Shown piece by piece: positions 1 through 31,473 of a stretch of DNA of 64,000 nucleotides (positions within the stretch are counted from its first letter, which is position 1; each line of letters starts with the position of its first letter). This stretch comes from a virus (Duplodnaviria; Heunggongvirae; Uroviricota; Caudoviricetes). The notes under the pieces are model-generated. The model saw only the letters and a list, made by a program, of their open reading frames with translations. It was not told the DNA's origin and ran no database searches. The translations under genes and the position numbers were made by a program. The DNA lies in IMG/VR virus record IMGVR_UViG_3300008108_000006. One strand, written 5' to 3'.

Positions 1-387
1 TGCAATTAAAACACCCGCATTGGCTTCAATAAAAGAAATATAACCATCTTCGATTTTAATAGTAAGATTTCTTTTTTTAGCCGATTTAATCATATCTTGA
101 GTTGGTTTTATATTAAGGTGTTTTATATGACCTGTATAAAGTGGATTTTTAATTATTAAATATGCTTTGGTTACTCTTCCATCATTTTGTTTAGCATAAT
201 ATGTAGCATCGACTTTGGATGTTGTAAACCATCCACCACCTTTGAATTCTCCACCACTATATGAACCACCATGATACATCACTAATGGATTTCCCTCATC
301 ATCAATGACTTTTGTATCCATAAATGGGAATTCGATGTTCTCAGTTTCCTCCCTCAATACTTTCCTTATATGTTCTTGTAAGTTCAT
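1..387 (-). CDS. Partial (runs off left edge) ART-PolyVal-like ADP-ribosyltransferase-fold protein with MNLQEHIRKVLREE leader
   Basis: Not in ORF track; hand translation MNLQEHIRKVLREETENIEFPFMDTKVIDDEGNPLVMYHGG...GGWFTTSKVDATYYA...AYLIIKNP matches the KVVDxxGNPLVxYHG / GxxFT / YLxIKNP pattern; ATG overlaps stop of upstream ORF (ATGA). Confidence 0.6.
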   Translation of the reverse strand, partial: MNLQEHIRKVLREETENIEFPFMDTKVIDDEGNPLVMYHGGSYSGGEFKGGGWFTTSKVDATYYAKQNDGRVTKAYLIIKNPLYTGHIKHLNIKPTQDMIKSAKKRNLTIKIEDGYISFIEANAGVLIA

Positions 388-1036: not shown

Positions 1037-1792
1037 TTAATTAATCATTTTTTTACCCAATAGATTTTCTCTAAACATTCTTGTTTTCAAATCACGAGTC
1101 CAAGTTTTTTTTTGTTCAAAATTTAATTCGTTATAAATTCCAATCAAAGGTGGTGACATTCCTATCATATCCATAAAAGACAAATCATCCCAAATATCCA
1201 TATATTTGTTATATAATTGTTTAACGTTGTGAATCTGACCCTGAATTTCAACCTTGGTCATATTGACTGAAACATCTTTCAAATTTCTTGTTCCAAGCTC
1301 AGCTTGTTTTCGTAGTCTTTTTGAAAGATGACGGTGATTAAATGTATCATCAATCCAATGTGCTAATTCATGATGAATACTACCTTTAATTTTTTCAGGT
1401 GTAAATTCTTTTAGTATATAGATTCTCTGTTGTTCTTTTGATAATTTTTGAGCAGCAATTTCTATATTTCCGTGACCATAACCCAAAACAAAATTTTTCG
1501 CACTGTCATTTATTGAAATAAAAATTTTTTGAGTACTGGGTTGATATCCATTGAGCCCATTATTAATAATAATATCACAAGGATTCATTTCATTAGCTTT
1601 GATAGCATCTCTTGTTTGTAATATTGAAGTGTCAATAGTATCCCAACTAAACATATCATCTCTAACAATTCCTGTTTGACGAATCTCTTCGATATCTTTT
1701 TTGAAAAACATATCATACAATAACTCAACATCATCATCCACCAATGTTAAAACCTCATTTAATACTTTTCTTATGTGTTCTTTTAAATTCAT
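1037..1792 (-). CDS. Putative zincin-like metallopeptidase with leader
   Basis: HHELAH (HExxH) with downstream E (KVEIQG); leader MNLKEHIRKVLNE. Confidence 0.55.
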   Translation of the reverse strand: MNLKEHIRKVLNEVLTLVDDDVELLYDMFFKKDIEEIRQTGIVRDDMFSWDTIDTSILQTRDAIKANEMNPCDIIINNGLNGYQPSTQKIFISINDSAKNFVLGYGHGNIEIAAQKLSKEQQRIYILKEFTPEKIKGSIHHELAHWIDDTFNHRHLSKRLRKQAELGTRNLKDVSVNMTKVEIQGQIHNVKQLYNKYMDIWDDLSFMDMIGMSPPLIGIYNELNFEQKKTWTRDLKTRMFRENLLGKKMIN

Positions 1793-1816: not shown

Positions 1817-2332
1817 TTAACCCGCACAATCTGCTTGAATCTGTTTATTCCTCCACTGAATCCAATACTCCTGTAACCCCTCTTTTGTTCGTTTCAAATT
1901 ACTAATATCAAACTCATCACCAGGTAATAACACACCACTCAATTCAGATATTCTCCTATTAAGTTCAGGTGTGTGATTCCAACCTCCGACGTGATCAAAA
2001 GATGTATAAGCATCACAATTATTTTGAACATCAATAAACGGAATGGATAACTTATATGTAACATTCCCACTACCCATACCATCAGTTGACATTCTTATAT
2101 TATTCAAATCAACTTTCTTGTATTCACCCTGTCTGTAAAGTTCTTTAAGTTTATCACCAACCTTACCCGACATTGTATTTGAAAATTTATGTGCAATGTC
2201 ACCCATCTCATTAAATTCAGGTCCAATATACGTTCCATTACAACCATATTCAGTACAAGATATGTTGGATGTTTGTTCTGAGATTAAACCCATCATCTCT
2301 TTAATTCTTTCTATGTTTTCTTGTAGTTTCAT
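1817..2332 (-). CDS. Hypothetical protein with MKLQENIERIKEMMGLISE leader
   Basis: ORF track; leader nearly identical to that of 4210..4995. Confidence 0.7.
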   Translation of the reverse strand: MKLQENIERIKEMMGLISEQTSNISCTEYGCNGTYIGPEFNEMGDIAHKFSNTMSGKVGDKLKELYRQGEYKKVDLNNIRMSTDGMGSGNVTYKLSIPFIDVQNNCDAYTSFDHVGGWNHTPELNRRISELSGVLLPGDEFDISNLKRTKEGLQEYWIQWRNKQIQADCAG

Positions 2333-2335
2333 AAT

Positions 2336-4195
2336 TTATCTAATTAACATTTTCTTTAATAATCTTCTTATGTGTTCATATATACCGTACACACTACCTT
2401 CTGTTCCAAAGACACTATTTGGAAATAAATCACCTAACATCTTATACTTATACGCTGCGTAAAACGCTGAAGGACTTTTTCGTCTAAAAGCTACTATGTT
2501 ATTATTATATTTAGCAGCCTCATCTTTAAGTGTATCCTTATTCCACTTAGGATCTATCGGTCTTTCGGGGAATAATAACATAGGATCTATACGGTGAAAC
2601 AATGCAGCTTTATAATGTAACGGACTACCCGCACTAAATTCAAATGGATAATCATATTTAGCCGCTTCTCTTTCAATTTCACCAGGTGTCATATATGGAA
2701 TTTTCATTGGAAATAAATCATCTATCATTCCTCGAGTACGTGCCGCATCATAAGCACGACGAGAACCTTTTTTAAATTCATTTCTTGAATTATATTTACT
2801 AGCTTCTTGTTTAATTTCATCAGGTGTTACTCTTTTAACAGTACTTGGAAATAAATCGTTTAATATTTTATAATTATATGCCGCTTCATGAGCACGACGA
2901 TTACCTTTTTGAAATTCACTTCTTGAATTATATTTACTAGCTTCTTGTCTAATCAAATCTTCAGTCCATTTTGTAAGTTTTCTTCCTTCAGGAAATAAAT
3001 CATCTAACATTCCTCGTTTATATGCAACATTATAAACCGTAGGATTACCTCGTTTAAATTCTGCTTTTGAATTATATTTACTAGCCTCTTGTCTAATCAT
3101 ATCTTCAGTCCAGTTTGTAAATTTTCTTCCTTCAGGAAATAAATCATCTAACATTCCTCGAGTACGCGCTGTTTGATACGCCGAAGGACTACCTCGTTTA
3201 AATTCTACTTTTGAATTATATTTACTAGCTTCTTGTTTAATCAAATCTTCAGTCCATTTTATATATTTTACTTCTGGAAATAGATCATTCATCATACCAT
3301 ACCTTAGTCCTGCATGATACGCCAAAGGATTACCTTTTTGAAATTCACTTCTTGAATTATATTTACTAGCTTCTTGTTTAATCAAATCTTCAGTCCATTT
3401 TGTAAGTTTTCTTCCTTCAGGAAATAAATCATCTATCATTTCACGTCTAAGCGCCGCATCGTATGCCCCAGTACTACCTCGTTTAAATTCTGCTTTTGAA
3501 TTATATTTACTAGCTTCTTGTTTAATCAAATCTTCAGTCCATTTTGTAAGTTTTCTTTCTTCAGGAAATAAATCATCTATCATTCCTCGATTATACGCTG
3601 ATTTATACGCCAAACGATTACCTTTCAGAAATTCACTTCTTAAATTATATTTACTAGCTTCTCGTCTGATCATATCATCAGTCCATTTTGTAAGTTTTTT
3701 TCCTTCAGGAAATAAATCATCTAACATTCCTCGATTATATGCAATTGTATACGCCGAAGGACTACCTTTTTGAAATTCTTTTTTTAAATTATATTTACTA
3801 GCTTCTCGTCTGATCATATCATCAGTCCATTTTGTAAGTTTTCTTCCTTCAGGAAATAAATCATCCAACATTCCACGTCTATATGCCGCACCAAATGCCG
3901 CAATATCACCTTTTTCAAATTCTTTTTTTAAATTATACTTACTCGCCACTTGTCTGATCAAATCTTCAGTCCATTTTGTATGTTTTTTTCCTTCAGGAAA
4001 TAAATCATCTAACATTCCACGTTTATATGCGGTTTGATATGCCGAAGAACTACCTTTCTGAAATTCTACTTTTGAATTATATTTACTAGCTTCTTTTTTA
4101 ATTTCATCCTCAGTCCATTTTAATGGTCCGACATCTTCTAACAAAATACCTTCTGTTAAAACCCTTAATTGTAATTCTGTTAATCTTAATCTCAT
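2336..4195 (-). CDS. Tandem-repeat protein, 12 copies of ~48-aa KWTEDxIxxEASKY...GMLDDLFP helical repeat; no nuclease domain
   Basis: Repeats read directly from translation (10 well conserved, 2 degenerate at C-terminus); leader MRLRLTELQLRVLTEG. Confidence 0.85.
   Translation of the reverse strand: MRLRLTELQLRVLTEGILLEDVGPLKWTEDEIKKEASKYNSKVEFQKGSSSAYQTAYKRGMLDDLFPEGKKHTKWTEDLIRQVASKYNLKKEFEKGDIAAFGAAYRRGMLDDLFPEGRKLTKWTDDMIRREASKYNLKKEFQKGSPSAYTIAYNRGMLDDLFPEGKKLTKWTDDMIRREASKYNLRSEFLKGNRLAYKSAYNRGMIDDLFPEERKLTKWTEDLIKQEASKYNSKAEFKRGSTGAYDAALRREMIDDLFPEGRKLTKWTEDLIKQEASKYNSRSEFQKGNPLAYHAGLRYGMMNDLFPEVKYIKWTEDLIKQEASKYNSKVEFKRGSPSAYQTARTRGMLDDLFPEGRKFTNWTEDMIRQEASKYNSKAEFKRGNPTVYNVAYKRGMLDDLFPEGRKLTKWTEDLIRQEASKYNSRSEFQKGNRRAHEAAYNYKILNDLFPSTVKRVTPDEIKQEASKYNSRNEFKKGSRRAYDAARTRGMIDDLFPMKIPYMTPGEIEREAAKYDYPFEFSAGSPLHYKAALFHRIDPMLLFPERPIDPKWNKDTLKDEAAKYNNNIVAFRRKSPSAFYAAYKYKMLGDLFPNSVFGTEGSVYGIYEHIRRLLKKMLIR
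2430..4120 (-). repeat. Coding tandem repeat array, ~144-bp unit
   Basis: Recurrent blocks such as aggaaataaatcatctaacattcc and gaattatatttactagcttc at ~144-bp spacing; boundaries approximate. Confidence 0.9.
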
Positions 4196-4209
4196 AATTA
4201 ATAAATATA

Positions 4210-4995
4210 TTAATTATTAGGTCTTGATGCTTTATATCCTTTCGAATTCAAATAATCAATCAATTCATCCACCATACTTTTATCTTCTTCTTGAAAGGCG
4301 TGTCTAGATGGACTAACAATAATACCATTATTATTTATAATCGTGAAATTTGATAAACCAAACTTCTGTACTAATTTGGATAATCTTTTCCCTAATTGCT
4401 CACGAGTTAAATTATATTTCTTATAAACTTCGGAATCATCTGAAATTATAATATCAGGAACCACTTTACTCAAAGTCTTTCCTTTTTCGATAAACTCTTG
4501 AGATGCAACTTCCTTTTGACCATAATCAGGATTTTCACTCACACTTAACGACTCATCACTTTCAAGAACATTCATAGCCTTATCAACTAAACTATTATCC
4601 ACTTTAACGAAATATTGTATCACACCAAATGGAAATGGTACATAATACATACCAACCGAACAATCTATGTTGGCACGTTTTAACATTAAACCAATTTTCT
4701 TTAAGATATTATTAGTGTTATTCAAATTCGATTTTGAATGATAAAGCAATATCTGAGACGCTATCTTGTGTTCAAATGAGTTTGGTTCCACTATGTCAAT
4801 CTCAGAAGGTCTATTGAATTGAAAACTACTATCCTCACCACCTGATTGTATGTGTTTAGTGTATTCCCCCATTTTTTTCCTGTCCTCATATGATAATTCC
4901 TCACCCCGATTCATCTTGTCCAAAATGTCGTCGATGTTTTCGGTAATGAGCCCCATAACCTCTTTAATTCTTTGTATGTTTTCTTGTAGGTTCAT
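4210..4995 (-). CDS. Hypothetical protein with MNLQENIQRIKEVMGLITE leader
   Basis: ORF track; shared leader. Confidence 0.7.
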   Translation of the reverse strand: MNLQENIQRIKEVMGLITENIDDILDKMNRGEELSYEDRKKMGEYTKHIQSGGEDSSFQFNRPSEIDIVEPNSFEHKIASQILLYHSKSNLNNTNNILKKIGLMLKRANIDCSVGMYYVPFPFGVIQYFVKVDNSLVDKAMNVLESDESLSVSENPDYGQKEVASQEFIEKGKTLSKVVPDIIISDDSEVYKKYNLTREQLGKRLSKLVQKFGLSNFTIINNNGIIVSPSRHAFQEEDKSMVDELIDYLNSKGYKASRPNN

Positions 4996-5085
4996 AATAT
5001 TATAATATAATCTTCACTCTTTTATAATCTTTAATTTGATATATTGAATTTGTCACCTTGGGAACCATCATATCTGTTCTTGTCA

Positions 5086-6219
5086 CTATAAATTAGTTTC
5101 ATCAACAACTCTTACTATCGCTGGACCATATTGGTCGTTATACATATCAAACGATTTTGAACTTCTGTTTGGATGTCCTACAGGCAGTCCTCTTGTACCA
5201 AAGTGGGATTCTTTATGACCAAATTCTTTATCCATATCATAGAAATTATCAAAATAATAATCGTTGTAAACTTTGTCATCAAAATAACTATCTTTTACAA
5301 CTCTACCATAATCATCTGACCATAAATTTGGTATCCCTTGAAATCCGTAAAAAACTTTATATCTCCCATTTTCATCACCATCATACGAAGATGTTTCTTC
5401 CCTTAATATTCTTATTATAGATTCTTCAATATTATCCTTATTTTTTTTAGGAAATAAATCATCTAACATCCCTCGATTTTTAGCAGGTTGATACGCCGAA
5501 GAACTACCTTTCTGAAATTCACCTCTTGAAGCATATTTGCTAGCTTCTTGTCTGATTTTATCTTCAGTCCATTTTAATTTTCTTTCAGGAAATAAATCAT
5601 CTAACATTCCACGTTTGCGTGCCGCACTATATGCCAAATAACTACCTTTCTGAAATTCTCCTCTGTATTTGTACTTACTAGCTTCTCGTCTAACTTCATC
5701 ATCTGTCCATTTTAATTTTCTTTCACCAAATAAATCATCTAACATTTTATTTCTATATGCGAACCCGTATGCCGATTGACTACCCATTTGAAATTCTCCT
5801 CTTGAATTATATTTACTAGCTTCTTGTCTGACTTCATCTTCGGTCCATCGCTTATGTCCTCTATCACCATAATTCTCAAAATTCAAATCTTGCAAAATCC
5901 CAATTTTTGACGCAGCTTGATAAGCTTCAAAATTACCTTTTTTAAATTCACTTTTTGACTTATATTTACCCGCCTCTTGTTTAATCAAATCTTCAGTCCA
6001 TTTTGATGCTTTCCTTTCAGGAAATAAATCTTTCAACATTTTACGGTTATACGCCGCACCATACGCTGAAAGACTCCCTTTTTGAAAATCTCCTCTGTAT
6101 TTGTACTTACTAGCTTCTCGTCTGATTTCATCTTCAGTCCATTTTAATGGTCTAGCATCTTCTAACAAAATACCTTCTGTTAAAATCCTTAATTGTATCT
6201 CTGTTAATCTTAATCTCAT
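5086..6219 (-). CDS. Paralogous repeat protein (5 repeats) fused to an internal leader copy and an unrelated C-terminal domain
   Basis: N-terminus nearly identical to 2336..4195; 5 KWTED repeats; internal IEESIIRILREE. Confidence 0.85.
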   Translation of the reverse strand: MRLRLTEIQLRILTEGILLEDARPLKWTEDEIRREASKYKYRGDFQKGSLSAYGAAYNRKMLKDLFPERKASKWTEDLIKQEAGKYKSKSEFKKGNFEAYQAASKIGILQDLNFENYGDRGHKRWTEDEVRQEASKYNSRGEFQMGSQSAYGFAYRNKMLDDLFGERKLKWTDDEVRREASKYKYRGEFQKGSYLAYSAARKRGMLDDLFPERKLKWTEDKIRQEASKYASRGEFQKGSSSAYQPAKNRGMLDDLFPKKNKDNIEESIIRILREETSSYDGDENGRYKVFYGFQGIPNLWSDDYGRVVKDSYFDDKVYNDYYFDNFYDMDKEFGHKESHFGTRGLPVGHPNRSSKSFDMYNDQYGPAIVRVVDETNL

Positions 6220-6812
6220 AACTCTCTTTTAATTAAATTATAATAGAATTCACTAATCCTATCAGGTGTTGTAATGTTGTTCGCTCTTAATTGTGTTCTT
6301 ATTTGATTAATAAAACCAACCAACTGAATAAGTTGTACATTTTTATACATTTGAGGACTCTTGAAGTGTGGTTTAATTAAACCCATCTTCTGAAGTTCCC
6401 TAATCTTTCTTGATCCAAAATCATCCGCAACGTTCTCACTATACTTCATAAACTTGGCAGCATCCATAACCGATACCTCCTCATTATAAAAATCATACAT
6501 AGTTTTCTCACCATACTTCTTATATTGATATTGATGTGCTATCTCATGAAAGATAACAAACAACGCCATCTCCAAACTAGTATTTAATACCGACTTATTA
6601 ATTAACACCCCATTATGTAATGCCGCCCCAAGTGCTTGATACTTAAAATCCGCAAACTCTATTTTCTGACAACCCGACTTCTCAATGAAATCAACCAAAA
6701 AATCTGTAACCTCATCCGACATATTATATGTGGATCTTAATTTATCAATAAAAGGACCCAAATTGGTGGTTTCCTCTCTTAATATTCTTCTTATGGTTTC
6801 TTGTAAGTTCAT
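6216..6812 (-). CDS. Putative zincin-like metallopeptidase with leader
   Basis: IFHEIAHQ (HExxH) and downstream ENVADDFG; leader MNLQETIRRILREE. Confidence 0.6.
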   Translation of the reverse strand: MNLQETIRRILREETTNLGPFIDKLRSTYNMSDEVTDFLVDFIEKSGCQKIEFADFKYQALGAALHNGVLINKSVLNTSLEMALFVIFHEIAHQYQYKKYGEKTMYDFYNEEVSVMDAAKFMKYSENVADDFGSRKIRELQKMGLIKPHFKSPQMYKNVQLIQLVGFINQIRTQLRANNITTPDRISEFYYNLIKREL

Positions 6813-6821
6813 ATATCGATA

Positions 6822-7736
6822 TTATTTTTTTAAATCGTTTTTATTTAGGGTTGAAATAAGTCTATGAAAATCTTCCCACATTTCCACTTGTTCTTCCGTA
6901 TATTCATCCCAAGGTTCTCCAGTAAATCTTTCATAAAAGTTTTCGGCGTTTTTATTAAAATTATTATCAAAAATAAAATAACCAATATAATTTCCCTCTA
7001 CAGGTTTTTTATATCTTACTTCTTGTATATATTCAAAATCATCTACCCTAACGTGGGATAAATCTTTATTTGGTTTTTCGTTAATGGAATATAAATATAT
7101 TTTATTATTACCTGTTAATGAACCATAATGATTTAACATACTCCAAACACCCAATAAAGCACCACCAATAGTTTTTGAAGCAGATATTTCTGGTGTTGTA
7201 CTTCTTGCAATAATATCATCTGTGTGAAACTCAGGGTTACCATCATCATTTAATATTCTTCTTATTGATTCATAAACATTAGTCTTCTTCGGTGTATTAT
7301 CATTCCCACATTTGTGACAAACATATGGATCTTCACCACCATCAGATAGATACCAAAACCATCCACAATCCTCACAAACAACTGCCGACTCACCCTCTAT
7401 CGCATAATACCTATCACGTATCTGATCATAGTAATGTTCACTGAAAAAATTATATAAATCATCCCACATTTCGGTAAATAATTCACTGTTATAATATTCC
7501 TCATCTGAAAAGAAAGTATCCACCATATATGAAACAACCATTTTATTGAATTTATATTCATCCATAAAATTCCACTTGTCCTTATTCTTTGCAAACTTCT
7601 TGGACGCATCTGTTAACGCTTCCTTAAATATTTCATCAATCTTCTTAAAGTCTAACCTTCTCAAAAGATGCTTTGGGATTTCAGATTCTTTTAATAATCT
7701 TCTAATCGTTTGTTTAATATTTTCTTGTAAGTCCAT
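6822..7736 (-). CDS. Multidomain protein: leader, helical domain, CxxC-CxxC zinc ribbon, second leader copy, possible ART-like domain
   Basis: CEDC...CHKC; internal VYESIRRILND; C-terminal PEISASKTIGG...QEVRY. Confidence 0.55.
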   Translation of the reverse strand: MDLQENIKQTIRRLLKESEIPKHLLRRLDFKKIDEIFKEALTDASKKFAKNKDKWNFMDEYKFNKMVVSYMVDTFFSDEEYYNSELFTEMWDDLYNFFSEHYYDQIRDRYYAIEGESAVVCEDCGWFWYLSDGGEDPYVCHKCGNDNTPKKTNVYESIRRILNDDGNPEFHTDDIIARSTTPEISASKTIGGALLGVWSMLNHYGSLTGNNKIYLYSINEKPNKDLSHVRVDDFEYIQEVRYKKPVEGNYIGYFIFDNNFNKNAENFYERFTGEPWDEYTEEQVEMWEDFHRLISTLNKNDLKK

Positions 7737-7751
7737 AAACTATAAATATAC

Positions 7752-7780
7752 AAAAAATGGAGATGTTTTCACATCCCCAT
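7752..7780 (-). terminator. Intrinsic terminator
   Basis: Minus strand ATGGGGATGT-GAAA-ACATCTCCAT followed by U tract. Confidence 0.8.
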
Positions 7781-7822
7781 CTAATTAAAAATTAAAAATT
7801 ATTATGAAAAAAAACAAATTTC

Positions 7823-8191
7823 CTAACTCATAACATATAAAGAAGAACCTTTACTATGGATCAATTCAAACTTATGGTCATCAACATTCCAACCGTTTAA
7901 GACCCAATTGGGTTGTACCCTCGGATTATACTTAACACGAACATTACTAAGTTCAATATCTGGATCAACAAGAACCTGAACATCCTCACATAAAACCCAA
8001 GCACAAACCGACTTGTGTTGCCCATTAAAGATCTTCTCCGCTGTTGATTTTTGATTTTTCAACTGACAACCTTTCATAATCAATTGAACAACTTTCGGAT
8101 CAAAATACTTAACCTCCGTTGGATAAGTAATTTTCCATTTCATATAGTTCTTACCTTGACTAAGATTAAACCTAACTTTGATCCGTTTCAT
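7823..8191 (-). CDS. Hypothetical phage protein
   Basis: ORF track 7823..8215; ATG at 8191 (MKRIKVRF) lies downstream of the promoter at 8218-8248. Confidence 0.7.
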   Translation of the reverse strand: MKRIKVRFNLSQGKNYMKWKITYPTEVKYFDPKVVQLIMKGCQLKNQKSTAEKIFNGQHKSVCAWVLCEDVQVLVDPDIELSNVRVKYNPRVQPNWVLNGWNVDDHKFELIHSKGSSLYVMS

Positions 8192-8248
8192 AATCTTGTT
8201 ATTTTTCTTTAACAATACAAAGATACTAGAAAAATTCTAACCTACAAA
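8189..8248 (-). repeat. ~60-bp promoter/start cassette, copy 1
   Basis: Identical to 8991-9049 except for one T in a T run. Confidence 0.9.
8218..8248 (-). promoter_or_regulatory. Bacteroidota-type housekeeping promoter TTTG-N19-TATCTTTG
   Basis: Exact -33/-7 consensus and spacing. Confidence 0.8.
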
Positions 8249-8309
8249 TTTTTTTTGAAATTGTTGTATATGAGATAAAAACCTTCTTTAATAAACTAGT
8301 TATAACCAA

Positions 8310-8552
8310 TTAAACAGTCTTACCCATTTTATTTCGTTCATACCATACCCACAGACTATCTCTCCAAGGTGTGTCATTCATGCCCCATTTTTGAGCATCA
8401 ATTCTCATATCTTCTGGTAATTCCCAAAATAATTGTTCCATTTCTTCTTGGTTTAAATTTACTTTACCATTATCCCAAGTTACATCCAATATAACATCGT
8501 GGAAATGTGCCCAATCATTTTTGTCAAAGTTGTAATCTTCTATTTTATTCAT
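8310..8552 (-). CDS. Hypothetical protein
   Basis: ORF track; on the dominant strand, fills gap. Confidence 0.65.
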   Translation of the reverse strand: MNKIEDYNFDKNDWAHFHDVILDVTWDNGKVNLNQEEMEQLFWELPEDMRIDAQKWGMNDTPWRDSLWVWYERNKMGKTV

Positions 8553-8575
8553 AATAATTAACTGGTTATAACAAA

Positions 8576-8644
8576 GTATATGTGAAATACCTCATAAGGT
8601 TTCTACTAATTATTTAGGTTTGTCGTCAGGTACTTCACATATAC
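8576..8644 (-). ncRNA. Intergenic stem-loop with hammerhead-like core (candidate)
   Basis: 17-bp inverted repeat (one G-U pair on minus strand) enclosing CTGACGA...GAAA-CCT-TATG-AGG-TA. Confidence 0.3.
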
Positions 8645-8665
8645 CCAACCGTTAGTGATAATGAT

Positions 8666-8965
8666 TTATTTTAGTCTCTCAAAATATATTGTTTGTGTTG
8701 GACCACCTACATATGTTTCTAAACGAAAAACAAAATTATCATCGTCAATTTTTGAAAGTTTCATTTCTTCGTGTCCAGAGCCTAAATTAAACTTTTTAAG
8801 TTTTTGTAATAATTTTCTTTCTTCTCCTTGTTTCAAAAATTTTCCTTTAATTTTGATTTTCTCATCTCTATATTCCGCAGAAAATAAATCACTATCACTA
8901 ACATCAGATATATTCAAGTTTTCATTGAACTCTCCGAAACTTTTTATGTGTTTTTTATCTTTCAT
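8666..8965 (-). CDS. Small protein with T4 capsid-targeting-like N-terminus
   Basis: KHIKSFGEFNE resembles T4 internal-protein CTS (MKTYQEFIAE). Confidence 0.6.
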   Translation of the reverse strand: MKDKKHIKSFGEFNENLNISDVSDSDLFSAEYRDEKIKIKGKFLKQGEERKLLQKLKKFNLGSGHEEMKLSKIDDDNFVFRLETYVGGPTQTIYFERLK

Positions 8966-8990
8966 ATTCGTTTATTAAGTTTAGTGTTTT

Positions 8991-9049
8991 CATAATCTTG
9001 TTATTTTCTTTAACAATACAAAGATACTAGAAAAATTCTAACCTACAAA
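8991..9049 (-). repeat. ~60-bp promoter/start cassette, copy 2
   Basis: Near-identical to 8189-8248. Confidence 0.9.
9019..9049 (-). promoter_or_regulatory. Bacteroidota-type promoter TTTG-N19-TATCTTTG
   Basis: Exact consensus and spacing. Confidence 0.8.
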
Positions 9050-9056
9050 CTTTTTT

Positions 9057-10064
9057 TTAGATAATTTCCATACTCTCAGAAAATAAGATTTGTTCCACCA
9101 TCGGACAATTATTACGAATAATAATGTTAAACCATTCCTTGAACTTCCCCTTATCTTTGAAGTCAAAGGTAATTCCATCATAATTAAGTTTGAAAACTCC
9201 AACCTTTTCTAAAACATCAACCTTATTCACAACCATATTTGTAACCCCATTTATGTTTGCCGCTTTGATAATCATATCCATATCGGTCCAAGCAATCTGT
9301 CTTGGTCTTCCCGTTGTGGAACCAAACTCATTCCCCACTTCCCGGATTTGATTAAACACATCATCGGGTTGTTCAAAGGTCTTAGCACCAACATAAGTGT
9401 TATACGCCTTACATACACCATAAACCTTTCTAATCTTTTGTGGCGGAACTCCGTTCAATACCGCAGAACCAATCGTACAATGTGATGATGTTACATATGG
9501 ATAATCACCCCAATCAATATCCAATTCAAAACCTTGTGCCCCCTCAAATAATATCCGAACATCAAAATCATTCTTGTGAAATACATTATAGATATCACAT
9601 ACATAATTCCGAATCTCTTCAACATCCTCAGCTCTAATACCCTGACGATAATACTTGTCACGATATGCAGGACCATTACCTGTTTTGGTTGTTCCAATCT
9701 TTGAATCCTTGGAATCCTCGGCAATGTGATCATCGGTAATAATATGAACCCTCTTGTCAATGAATAAGTATTCCCTAACACGAATACCCTTACTCTCCAA
9801 ATCCTTAATCTCACTCATAAGTGAATTGATATTCACAACACACCCAGGCCCAATGATGGATATCAAACCATTAACAATCCCCGATGGTATGTAATGAGTA
9901 ACAATCTTCATATCACCAACATAAATGGTGTGACCAGCGTTTCCACCACCATTATAACGAACAACGTGTGTATATTCACCACTTTGAGTTAAATAATTAC
10001 AAACCTTACCTTTTCCAGTATCACCCGCTTGTAAATCAACTATTACATCTGCAAATTCTAACAT
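9057..10064 (-). CDS. purA: Adenylosuccinate synthetase (short form)
   Basis: GDTGKGK P-loop, GGGNAGHT, EGAQG, DWGDYPYVTSS, GSTTGRPR, NKVD. Confidence 0.93.
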   Translation of the reverse strand: MLEFADVIVDLQAGDTGKGKVCNYLTQSGEYTHVVRYNGGGNAGHTIYVGDMKIVTHYIPSGIVNGLISIIGPGCVVNINSLMSEIKDLESKGIRVREYLFIDKRVHIITDDHIAEDSKDSKIGTTKTGNGPAYRDKYYRQGIRAEDVEEIRNYVCDIYNVFHKNDFDVRILFEGAQGFELDIDWGDYPYVTSSHCTIGSAVLNGVPPQKIRKVYGVCKAYNTYVGAKTFEQPDDVFNQIREVGNEFGSTTGRPRQIAWTDMDMIIKAANINGVTNMVVNKVDVLEKVGVFKLNYDGITFDFKDKGKFKEWFNIIIRNNCPMVEQILFSESMEII

Positions 10065-10073
10065 AATCTTAAA

Positions 10074-10328
10074 TTAAATTTTATCCAAACACCAAATCGG
10101 TGTCTTTTCACCAACATATGAACCCTGAACATTGAATGAAAAATACTCAATAGCATCTTCTTCACTCATATCACGACATAAAATTGTAATACATTTACTG
10201 ATTGAATAGATTAGTCTCATACTTGACTCATCTAACCCTATGATGGCATCATCAAAACCATCCGCCTTCAAAAATAACTCATCCTCATAATTCATGAATA
10301 AGTACTCCAAAAAATTTGTTTGTTCCAT
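10074..10328 (-). CDS. Conserved hypothetical phage protein
   Basis: ADGFDDAIIG...EEDAIEYFSFNVQGSYVGEKTP, a motif common in aquatic phages. Confidence 0.7.
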   Translation of the reverse strand: MEQTNFLEYLFMNYEDELFLKADGFDDAIIGLDESSMRLIYSISKCITILCRDMSEEDAIEYFSFNVQGSYVGEKTPIWCLDKI

Positions 10329-10383: not shown

Positions 10384-10716
10384 TTATAATGGAAAGGTTT
10401 CGCCAACAAATTGGTTAGGAACAGGAATGGTTTGAATGGTGTTTATACCCTCAATTTGAAAGGTTTCACCAACCCATCTACCCATAAGTGATTCTAACAT
10501 AGATAGTTCCATAGGAAGGTATCGAAGAATATTTTCACTAATACCACGATAGATAAATAAGTCTTTATTTTTCAAACCCAAATGACCATCTCCTTCAGGA
10601 TCTATTAACCAAATAATCCCAAATATATCTTTTCTCCATTCATATTTCTTAAACTGAGTTTCCATGAATTTTTTGAATATTGGATATAACTTTTCTTCTG
10701 TTACCTTGACTTTCAT
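10384..10716 (-). CDS. Tandem paralog 1 (MKVKVTEEKL family)
   Basis: Start refined to ATG 10716 by alignment with paralogs; TATTTAT upstream. Confidence 0.75.
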   Translation of the reverse strand: MKVKVTEEKLYPIFKKFMETQFKKYEWRKDIFGIIWLIDPEGDGHLGLKNKDLFIYRGISENILRYLPMELSMLESLMGRWVGETFQIEGINTIQTIPVPNQFVGETFPL

Positions 10717-10769
10717 AATGATAAATATCCTTATAATGGAAAGGTGTCTCCAACACTCAACGGTGATGG

Positions 10770-11069
10770 TCAAGTCATCACCTGGACGATTAACCCCTCA
10801 ATTTGAAAGGTCTCTCCAACCCATCTACTCATAAGTGATTCTAACATAGATTGTTCCATAGGAATGTAGCGAAGAATTCCTTCACTAATATCCACATAGA
10901 CATGTAAATATCTACCTTCCACCAATTCCATTTGACCATATCCTTCAGGATCCATAAAAAATATCCCACCATTATTTTTATCTCTTCTCCATTCATATCT
11001 CTTAAACTGAGTTTCCATAAATTTTTTGAATATTGGATATAACTTTTCTTCTGTTATTTTAACTTTCAT
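10770..11069 (-). CDS. Tandem paralog 2 (MKVKITEEKL family)
   Basis: Near-identical N-terminus; TATTTAT upstream. Confidence 0.75.
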   Translation of the reverse strand: MKVKITEEKLYPIFKKFMETQFKRYEWRRDKNNGGIFFMDPEGYGQMELVEGRYLHVYVDISEGILRYIPMEQSMLESLMSRWVGETFQIEGLIVQVMT

Positions 11070-11099
11070 AATGATAAATATTCTTATAATGGAAAGGTT

Positions 11100-11420
11100 T
11101 CACCAACCTAATGGTTTCAAAACGAATGGATTCATTTGGGGATTTAACACCTCAATTTGAAAGGTCTCTTCAACCCATCTACTCATAAGTGTTTGTAACA
11201 TAGATTGTTGTATAGGAATGTAGCGAAGAATTTTATCTTTAATACCACGATATATCCATAATTTTTTGTTTTTTTCCAATTCCAAATGACCAAATCCTTC
11301 AGGATCTATATACCAAATGGAATCATATTCATCTTTTCTCCATTCATATCCCTTAAACTGAGTTTCCATGAATTTTTTGAAAACTGGATATAACTTTTCT
11401 TCTGTTACTTTAACTTTCAT
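11100..11420 (-). CDS. Tandem paralog 3 (MKVKVTEEKL family)
   Basis: Near-identical N-terminus. Confidence 0.75.
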   Translation of the reverse strand: MKVKVTEEKLYPVFKKFMETQFKGYEWRKDEYDSIWYIDPEGFGHLELEKNKKLWIYRGIKDKILRYIPIQQSMLQTLMSRWVEETFQIEVLNPQMNPFVLKPLGW

Positions 11421-31113: not shown

Positions 31114-31473
31114 ATGTTATATCCAGTTAAAATAAGAATAAATGACCAAGTTTTCAAATGTGAAGTTAGACACACTAAAAGTGACTTGGAAAAAGGTATG
31201 ATGGGAAGAACATTTCCCGATACTAATTATAGTATGTTGTTTATTATGCCAACATCAGAAAGACAAAGTTTTTGGATGAAAAACTGTGTTCAACCATTAG
31301 ATATACTTTTTATATCGGGTGTTAAAATTACAACAATACATAAGAATTGTCCTCCTTGTGATGAAGAACCTTGTGAAACTTATGAAGGTTACGGTGGTTT
31401 TGTGTTAGAATTAAACGGTGGTGCCTGTGATATGTACGGAATAAACGAAGGTGATAGAATTGAGATTATTTAA
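31114..31473 (+). CDS. DUF192-family protein
   Basis: GMMGR...MLF...FWMKNCVQPLDILFI...VLELNGG. Confidence 0.85.
   Translation: MLYPVKIRINDQVFKCEVRHTKSDLEKGMMGRTFPDTNYSMLFIMPTSERQSFWMKNCVQPLDILFISGVKITTIHKNCPPCDEEPCETYEGYGGFVLELNGGACDMYGINEGDRIEII

Follow-up and report, generated by a model that had tools for sequence, protein, structure and literature searches.

Gene P0001, at positions 2336 to 4195 of the viral record IMGVR_UViG_3300008108_000006 (Caudoviricetes), encodes twelve similar repeats and little else. The whole stretch analysed, 64,000 nucleotides (nt), is referred to as the window. On balance, we read the protein as a stand-alone array of a nuclease-associated three-helix module of roughly 40 amino acids (aa), domesticated as a nucleic-acid binder that does not cut. 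As far as its sequence can tell, P0001 is probably a DNA-binding protein derived from a selfish phage nuclease, rather than a code of the kind used by transcription activator-like effectors (TALE), to which the first-pass annotation of the window had likened it.

Composition of the array gene

P0001 comes from a freshwater phage. Its reading frame is uninterrupted over 1.86 kb in a genome with a guanine plus cytosine (GC) content of 32%. A paralog, P0002, is present in the window, and an ortholog, P0195, is found on a lake-metagenome contig. The gene is divided as follows:

2336..4195, (-) strand: array gene P0001, 619 aa, consisting of an N-terminal peptide, 12 repeats and a short tail
4124..4195, (-) strand: N-terminal peptide MRLRLTELQLRVLTEGILLEDVGP, 24 aa, common to the paralog and the ortholog P0195
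2408..4123, (-) strand: twelve tandem repeats, aa 25–596, 46–49 aa each
2336..2407, (-) strand: C-terminal tail, aa 597–619 plus the stop codon, terminating in EHIRRLLKKMLIR and kept in the ortholog P0195

Anchoring on the EA(S/A)KY motif yields 12 units, spaced 48, 48, 48, 48, 48, 47, 48, 48, 46, 46, and 49 aa apart. Tandem Repeats Finder reports a period of 144 nt for the gene (8.5 copies, 81% matches, score 1416) and a super-period of 432 nt (score 1696). The protein belongs to the PHROGs family phrog_20046 (E 2.5e-95, 8 matched stretches), whose function is listed as unknown; P0002 belongs to the same family (E 4.5e-44). The twelve repeats of about 48 aa proposed in the first-pass annotation are thus borne out by motif anchoring, Tandem Repeats Finder and the phrog_20046 match, and the ten helix strings that it listed are exactly columns 25–35 of units 1–10. 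A six-frame profile scan of the window gives 12 matches at 2411–4120, with E values of 5e-17 to 6e-30, and matches are confined to P0001 and P0002. This profile was built from the P0001-type repeats of the window themselves; independent support comes from phrog_20046 and the outside relatives.

Units 1–10 share 67–89% DNA identity, and units 11 and 12 are degenerate. Each repeat is closed, after its helices, by a basic linker, FPEGRKLTK. The protein as a whole is basic, with an isoelectric point of 9.5 and 119 Lys plus Arg versus 91 Asp plus Glu (net +28). Promoter-like TAACTTTG motifs are not enriched, and none is close to the P0001 gene.

A module associated with nucleases

A family profile made from 17 window repeats was searched against 1.84 billion representative proteins, clustered at 50% identity. 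It recovers 5,912 clusters at E<=1e-3, of which 3,401 remain at E<=1e-10, with the longest arrays reaching 17 units. The family consensus, WTxExxxxEAxKYxxRxEFxKxxxxAYxxAxxxG(W/M)LD, fits all 12 units of P0001. A search for single-module proteins gives 24 matches, all unnamed.

The partners of the module are distinctive. A non-repeat segment of at least 60 aa is present in 230 of the 252 relatives fetched, and the typical insert is roughly 100 aa. Among the segments of 85–230 aa, 193 of 240 are internal to the array, with repeats on either side. GIY-YIG (PF01541) accounts for 97 of the 110 inserts tested, which bears out the statement in the first-pass annotation that similar repeats occur on phage homing-type endonucleases. 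Terminal partner domains include T5orf172/MUG113 (8 relatives), GIY-YIG (5), the restriction endonuclease (REase)-like MTES_1575 (2), and an SF2 helicase/ResIII domain (1); some relatives add an N-terminal DUF723 zinc ribbon. Pure arrays make up 22 of the 252 sampled relatives, a few of them probably fragments. Two examples come from cultured phages. Gp123 of Rhizobium phage RHph_Y60 consists of GIY-YIG and 3 repeats, and gp125 of BcepSauron consists of 4 repeats and a C-terminal segment that resembles T5orf172 by eye and that the GIY-YIG profile does not match.

The phrog_20046 module is therefore nuclease-associated, recurring with several unrelated nuclease families in the manner of a NUMOD. 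Sitbon and Pietrokovski are said to have described NUMODs, in 2003, as nuclease-associated modular DNA-binding domains. Because its inserts and partners are mostly GIY-YIG, T5orf172/MUG113, REase-like and SF2 helicase domains, the module itself probably binds nucleic acid.

The module does not correspond to a family named in the resources consulted. Pfam-A and NCBIfam give no genuine match to P0001, and no NUMOD family in Pfam matches at E<=1. The Pfam matches to AGO_N, LysM_RLK, Couple_hipA and others were rejected as artefacts that sum weak repeat matches with no single significant stretch. Many relatives carry the label PF26058 in precomputed annotations, which is absent from the Pfam copy searched. 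Survey papers on jumbo phages and on GIY-YIG do not describe the module.

Two further observations concern its distribution. In the T4-like Vibrio phage EniLVp02, gp0071 (L002 3464–5155) has six repeats after an N-terminal region of 180 aa. By eye this region shows an HNH-like H-H...N...H pattern, for which Pfam, PHROGs and PDB searches give no support. Separately, twelve short proteins imported into the chromatophore of Paulinella chromatophora share a motif of unknown function, termed 'group 2', that is reported to occur in bacterial GIY-YIG, SF2 helicase and NUMOD proteins as well (PMC7729196). This set of partners is like that of the phrog_20046 module; the paper gives no sequences by which identity of the two could be confirmed.

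Absence of a nuclease

The claim that P0001 has no nuclease domain holds. Pfam finds none in the protein, and the six frames of the 64-kb window contain no match to a GIY-YIG profile made from 110 relatives (best E 2.9). The repeats leave 24 residues at the N-terminus and 23 at the C-terminus, 47 in all, so that P0001 has no space for a further domain. As the catalytic domain was looked for and not found, we reject P0001 as a homing endonuclease. The appended region of P0001 is homologous to that which flanks GIY-YIG in family members, including RHph_Y60 gp123.

Selection and change in repeat number

A lake-metagenome contig of 992 nt (L001) carries the ortholog P0195, with the same N- and C-termini as P0001, the same downstream gene and 3 repeats. 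Its DNA is 91% identical to window positions 1935–2821 and 86% identical to 3996–4216. The shared neighbour is:

1817..2332, (-) strand: downstream leader-tagged gene, 171 aa, syntenic, with 100% protein identity over 132 aa to the neighbour on L001

The first unit of P0195 is a chimera of the front of unit 1 and the end of unit 10. The 12- and 3-repeat alleles thus differ by a nine-unit in-frame insertion or deletion between repeats. Repeat number changes quickly, since the 3-repeat ortholog lies within DNA of 86–91% identity.

The ratio of nonsynonymous to synonymous substitution rates (dN/dS) between P0001 and P0195 is 0.31 (128 codons) and 0.49 (60 codons), indicating that the gene is kept by selection. 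Divergence from L001 is mosaic. The synonymous rate dS is 0.28–0.32 in the array gene and 0.067 in the adjoining gene, whose protein is identical. The array gene is maintained by selection, yet it is unusually fast-moving.

The stretch is found in sequencing runs of 14 studies, whose metagenomes come from lakes, fresh water and other environments, and no RNA datasets are listed among these runs. Identical alleles occur in lake-metagenome runs of different studies and years. Two joints of metagenome contigs inside the array correspond to net skips of precisely 432 nt and 144 nt, a weak signal given how short the sides of the joints are. Short-read contigs fragment within the array and so give no distributions of repeat number.

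Predicted fold and variable surface

AlphaFold2 predicts one unit with a predicted local distance difference test (pLDDT) score of 85 and a predicted template modelling (pTM) score of 0.61. For three units, with a 111-row alignment, the mean pLDDT is 87 and the pTM 0.40. Helices are placed at about residues 5–12, 18–24, and 26–34 of each unit, with a short fourth at 38–41. The linkers between units have a pLDDT of 62–67, and the Atlas model of the whole protein has a pTM of 0.20. As the units are confident, the linkers are of low confidence and the three-unit pTM is 0.40, no continuous solenoid is predicted. In these models P0001 is a string of beads, each an independent three-helix bundle.

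In units 1–10, columns T4, D6, I8, A12–N16, E20, F21, G24, and D40–P43 are invariant. Entropy peaks at columns 19, 22, 25–27, 30, 31, 33, and 34, and at least 9 columns have an entropy of at least 1.3 bits. Judged from helical periodicity, the variable columns would occupy the exposed sides of helices 2 and 3, with a conserved core of F21, A28, Y29, and A32 on the other side. The variable residues are thus predicted not to be buried, a point on which the first-pass proposal of a binding surface depended. That annotation also spoke of one hypervariable helix. Variation is indeed concentrated on helices 2 and 3, although 'hypervariable' is too strong a word. Columns 30, 22, 19, 26, 33, and 27 are the most variable between repeats in 151 other family proteins as well, nuclease-bearing ones included, so the variable surface is generic to the family and not peculiar to P0001.

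Among the repeats of P0001, dN/dS is 0.37 on scaffold columns; for helix 3 taken as a unit it is about 1.0. The per-position comparison suggested in the first-pass annotation thus reveals a constrained scaffold, and an excess (about 1.9) appears only for helix columns picked after seeing the data, which makes that value circular.

Column 30 is dominated family-wide by N, Q, S, D, K, T, and R. The mean charge in the family is +2.8 per repeat, with K14 (84%), R/K18 (80%), K/R23 (62%), and K/R34 (68%) conserved. Basic charge together with a variable surface is consistent with a surface that reads nucleic acid, and is not proof of it.

Proposed origin and mode of action

In the relatives, the modules on both sides of the nuclease or helicase domain presumably position this partner on DNA. 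Each module would fold independently, and the exposed columns 19, 22, 26, 27, 30, 31, 33, and 34 of helices 2 and 3 would make sequence-dependent contacts, while the basic residues K2, K14, R18, K23, and K/R34 and the basic linkers would hold the DNA backbone. Modules in series could sum to an extended, degenerate target, as in the zinc-finger or NUMOD bead-on-string arrays of homing endonucleases.

Because the nuclease normally sits between repeats, its loss in one step is feasible: unequal recombination between flanking repeats could remove it and leave a nuclease-free array. The same process would alter the number of repeats, as in the 12- and 3-repeat forms of near-identical phages. The protein so retained may serve as a blocker, a regulator or a DNA-coating factor. 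That the gene is kept by selection argues for a domesticated binder, not debris.

Several results weigh against this reading. Structure searches do not assign the module to a DNA-binding fold. PDB sequence searches with P0001 and with a 69-sequence repeat profile give nothing meaningful, Foldseek against the PDB gives no match at E<=0.001, and a fold search of AFDB Swiss-Prot gives nothing. VIA-align over 48,161 chains gives a best Z of 3.4 for the 3-repeat model and 3.1 for the 1-repeat model, which is noise level for a helical unit of 40 aa. The first-pass annotation had likened the variable helix to the recognition helix of a helix-turn-helix (HTH) domain. The predicted three-helix unit may be such a domain, but by eye the junction of helices 2 and 3 is off the classical HTH sequence pattern. 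The variable exposed positions would suit any ligand surface equally well. An array of 10–17 modules would span a much longer stretch of DNA than the homing sites known, and some modules may therefore not read bases. Finally, no nuclease-bearing ortholog of P0001 was found, and the route by nuclease loss remains a proposal.

Shared N-terminal peptides and possible delivery with the genome

P0001 had been described as carrying the putative virion leader. Its N-terminus (MRLRLTELQLRVLTEG...; MRLRLTELQL...) differs from the MNLQENIRRILREE-type leader that heads most of its neighbours. It is a second shared type, found also on the paralog at 5086–6219 and, in a looser form, on open reading frames (ORFs) at 31470, 32204, and 56104, so that a shared N-terminal peptide stands and its identity with the main leader does not. 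By eye, the peptide has LxE motifs at residues 5–7, 13–15, and 18–20. The extreme C-terminus of P0001 contains EHIRRLLKK, a stretch like the core of the N-terminal leader of the neighbours. Leader-like stretches are also internal in P0002 (aa 262–280) and P0018, and terminal in P0130. Two further genes of the window bear on this question:

5086..6219, (-) strand: paralog P0002, 377 aa, 0.9 kb from P0001, with the same 24-aa N-terminus and 5 repeats at 5440–6144
1..387, (-) strand: protein with a leader, truncated at the edge of the window, that contains an ART-PolyVal ADP-ribosyltransferase domain (PF18760, E 6e-11, a score exceeding the curated cut-off)

After its repeats, P0002 has the internal leader-like stretch IIRILREETS and then a 95-aa domain that matches no known family. 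The ART-PolyVal ORF lies about 2 kb from P0001 and also matches positions 517–625 of a PHROG profile of 1,664 positions. This is what would be expected of a polyvalent protein divided among separate leader-tagged genes. Domains of polyvalent proteins are predicted to enter the cell with the DNA, T4 Alt being the packaged prototype (PMC5512222).

Nuclease-free arrays bear the leader of their own cluster on three unrelated contigs with different leaders. On one (L004), the leader MKIILTETQLKTVIKE heads two adjacent repeat genes. On another (L005, an ENA contig of 80.8 kb), the array has the leader MKHIHLFEGF and its neighbours start with MKHIKLFEAF and similar sequences, a type akin to MKTFKEF, with which T4 internal protein I begins. 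The neighbourhoods on L004 and L005 offer no functional clue beyond the shared leaders. The leader pattern is present on 5 of 22 pure arrays and on 6 of 230 other relatives (Fisher p 0.001, in a sample that is not phylogenetically independent).

The shared N-terminal peptide of P0001 itself, the shared leaders of the neighbours and the polyvalent-protein-type domains together suggest delivery from the capsid. By analogy with such systems, P0001 could be packed in the capsid and enter with the genome, a possibility that we put at somewhat below even. What speaks against it is that the packaging step is drawn from analogy and that the N-terminus of P0001 is unlike the main leader of its neighbours. 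A bolder version, and an improbable one, adds that each bead reads a short DNA word via about 6 surface positions, and that the arrays, packed in the capsid and entering with the genome, are retuned by gain, loss and shuffling of repeats. If this were true, a binder of custom specificity might, for example, protect the phage DNA or shut down a host locus from time zero.

Other observations concern the leaders and the surrounding genes. In four metagenome runs, leader-coding DNA at gene starts (2244–2354 and 4908–5018) has spikes of 5- to 50-fold in depth, and many contigs end there in branches; gene bodies may be shuffled by recombination with the leader sequence as the junction. In the different phage of L005, a gene cluster at 3516–10306, all members of which start with MKHI(K/R/H)LFE(A/G)F, includes a 10-repeat nuclease-free array. 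The leader-tagged proteins at 1037–1792 (-) and 6216–6812 (-) each have an HExxH motif (HHELAHW and FHEIAHQ), with weak SprT-like or DUF3920 matches; from these sequences both are possible zincin-type peptidases, which would be a further theme shared with polyvalent proteins. Three tandem paralogous genes of about 100–110 aa at 10384–11420 (-) all start with MKVK(V/I)TEEKLYP(I/V)FKKFMETQFK, a local triplication.

Alternative explanations

The alternative that survives best keeps DNA binding and drops delivery. P0001 would act inside the infected cell only, as a transcription regulator or as a blocker of the sites of related nucleases, and would stay unpackaged, its N-terminal peptide being a signal for translation or recombination. 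The nuclease-free repressor CapR offers a precedent. The internal or C-terminal position of leader-like stretches in P0002, P0018, P0130 and the tail of P0001 is in keeping with it, and leader-coding DNA, as a branching, high-depth assembly point, suits a recombination junction no less than it does a targeting peptide. Against it stand the ART-PolyVal domain of the neighbour, a class tied to injected proteins, and the enrichment of leader-like N-termini on nuclease-free arrays. We regard purely intracellular action as rather unlikely.

Binding to a protein or to a polymer other than nucleic acid would also make use of a variable exposed surface. Slx4 CCD docks onto Slx1, and the module might dock in a similar way onto the nuclease domain, or bind cell wall as the CW_7 repeats of Cpl-7 do, the free array then being a scaffold or decoy. 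This draws on the lack of a demonstrated DNA-binding fold and on weak recurrent matches in VIA-align, to Slx4 CCD (Z 2.6–3.2, three entries) and to the Cpl-7 module (Z 2.1–2.2). All of these are at noise level, as are those to TetR-type HTH (Z 2.1–2.4), and BFVD returns homologs alone (BcepSauron and Rhizobium phages) plus non-significant HNH rows. Moreover, the domains fused to the module (GIY-YIG, T5orf172, REase-like and SF2 helicase) all belong to enzymes that act on DNA. Modules flank the nuclease on either side and vary in number, their charge is strongly basic, and Pfam gives no match to CW_7 or to any other wall-binding family. We consider such a ligand improbable.

P0001 might instead be an inert, decaying remnant of a homing endonuclease gene (HEG) that has lost its nuclease. 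The nuclease is a normal part of the family architecture, the last two units are degenerate, and divergence of the array gene outpaces that of its neighbour (dS 0.28–0.32 versus 0.067). Decay is hard to reconcile with a 1.86-kb frame that stays open at 32% GC, with the dN/dS values between orthologs and on scaffold columns given above, and with a second intact paralog that has the same N-terminus. Identical alleles in lake metagenomes of different studies and years, and nuclease-free arrays that recur in other phages with leaders of their own, speak against it too. We give this explanation little credence.

Least probable is a TALE-like programmable code, in which a rigid superhelix reads one base or a fixed short word per repeat via a few hypervariable residues: the near-identical scaffold, the focus of variation on few positions of one helix, the variability of the same columns family-wide and the differing number and order of repeats in close relatives would suit it, but the analogy fails on a period of 48 aa with three helices in independent units instead of 33–35 aa (34 in TALE) with two, on at least 7–9 variable columns instead of a 2-residue code, on linkers of low confidence with the low three-unit and whole-protein pTM values, and on a dN/dS for helix 3 that is not clearly above 1.

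Significance and comparison with known systems

Few uncharacterised repeats of phage metagenomes are commoner than this module, which forms thousands of clusters and nearly always accompanies DNA-cutting domains. We know of no described function for it and of no solved structure. The nuclease-free 12-unit array and its 3-unit ortholog in near-identical DNA are an entry point, expressible without toxicity, for asking whether and how the beads read DNA. Should they do so, zinc fingers and TAL repeats would be joined by a further natural modular scaffold for DNA recognition, and the target choice of a very large class of selfish phage nucleases would be explained. The leader-tagged cassettes with polyvalent-type domains suggest that some phages deliver DNA binders with the genome.

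The DNA-binding domains of homing endonucleases are bead-on-string repeats that recombine between repeats, and CapR of the Vibrio cholerae PLE satellite is a nuclease-free domain of this kind used as a repressor (bioRxiv 10.1101/2023.03.23.533998). The P0001 family resembles I-TevI, T4 Seg and the ICP1 T5orf172 HEGs in its bead-on-string layout, with repeats that recombine and change in number. P0001 differs from GIY-YIG and T5orf172 homing endonucleases in having no catalytic domain at all, and it shares its module with thousands of GIY-YIG-bearing relatives. In homing endonucleases the binding region is at one end, whereas in phrog_20046 relatives the nuclease lies inside the array. The CapR, DUF723 and DUF4379 modules of homing endonucleases are zinc fingers, whereas the P0001 module is a cysteine-free three-helix unit that is not NUMOD1–4 by Pfam. 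CapR is the closest parallel as a homing-endonuclease DNA-binding region reused as a binder without its nuclease, if P0001 indeed binds. It is a single zinc-finger domain with a known target, encoded by a satellite; P0001 has 12 helical modules and no known target, and is encoded by a phage.

TAL repeats, like P0001, are tandem, near-identical helical repeats with few variable positions, and P0001 is possibly delivered too. They form a solenoid of 34-aa two-helix repeats with a 2-residue repeat-variable diresidue, and P0001 has 48-aa three-helix units with many variable positions and no predicted packing between repeats. The Cpl-7 CW_7 repeats match the P0001 module in their 48-aa period, three-helix unit and short linkers. 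CW_7 binds cell wall and has no sequence match to P0001 (structural Z 2.1–2.2); the fusion partners in the P0001 family are DNA enzymes.

The internal proteins and Alt of T4 are like the window genes in that a short N-terminal peptide is shared by unrelated small proteins, with (L/I)xE motifs of the prohead-protease type. The leader of T4 internal protein I differs from that of P0001, and packaging and cleavage of P0001 are hypothetical. With the polyvalent proteins (Iyer et al. 2017, PMC5512222) the window shares the ART-PolyVal neighbour, and DNA-binding modules are one of the classes found in such proteins; there the domains are joined in one giant protein, and here they are separate genes.

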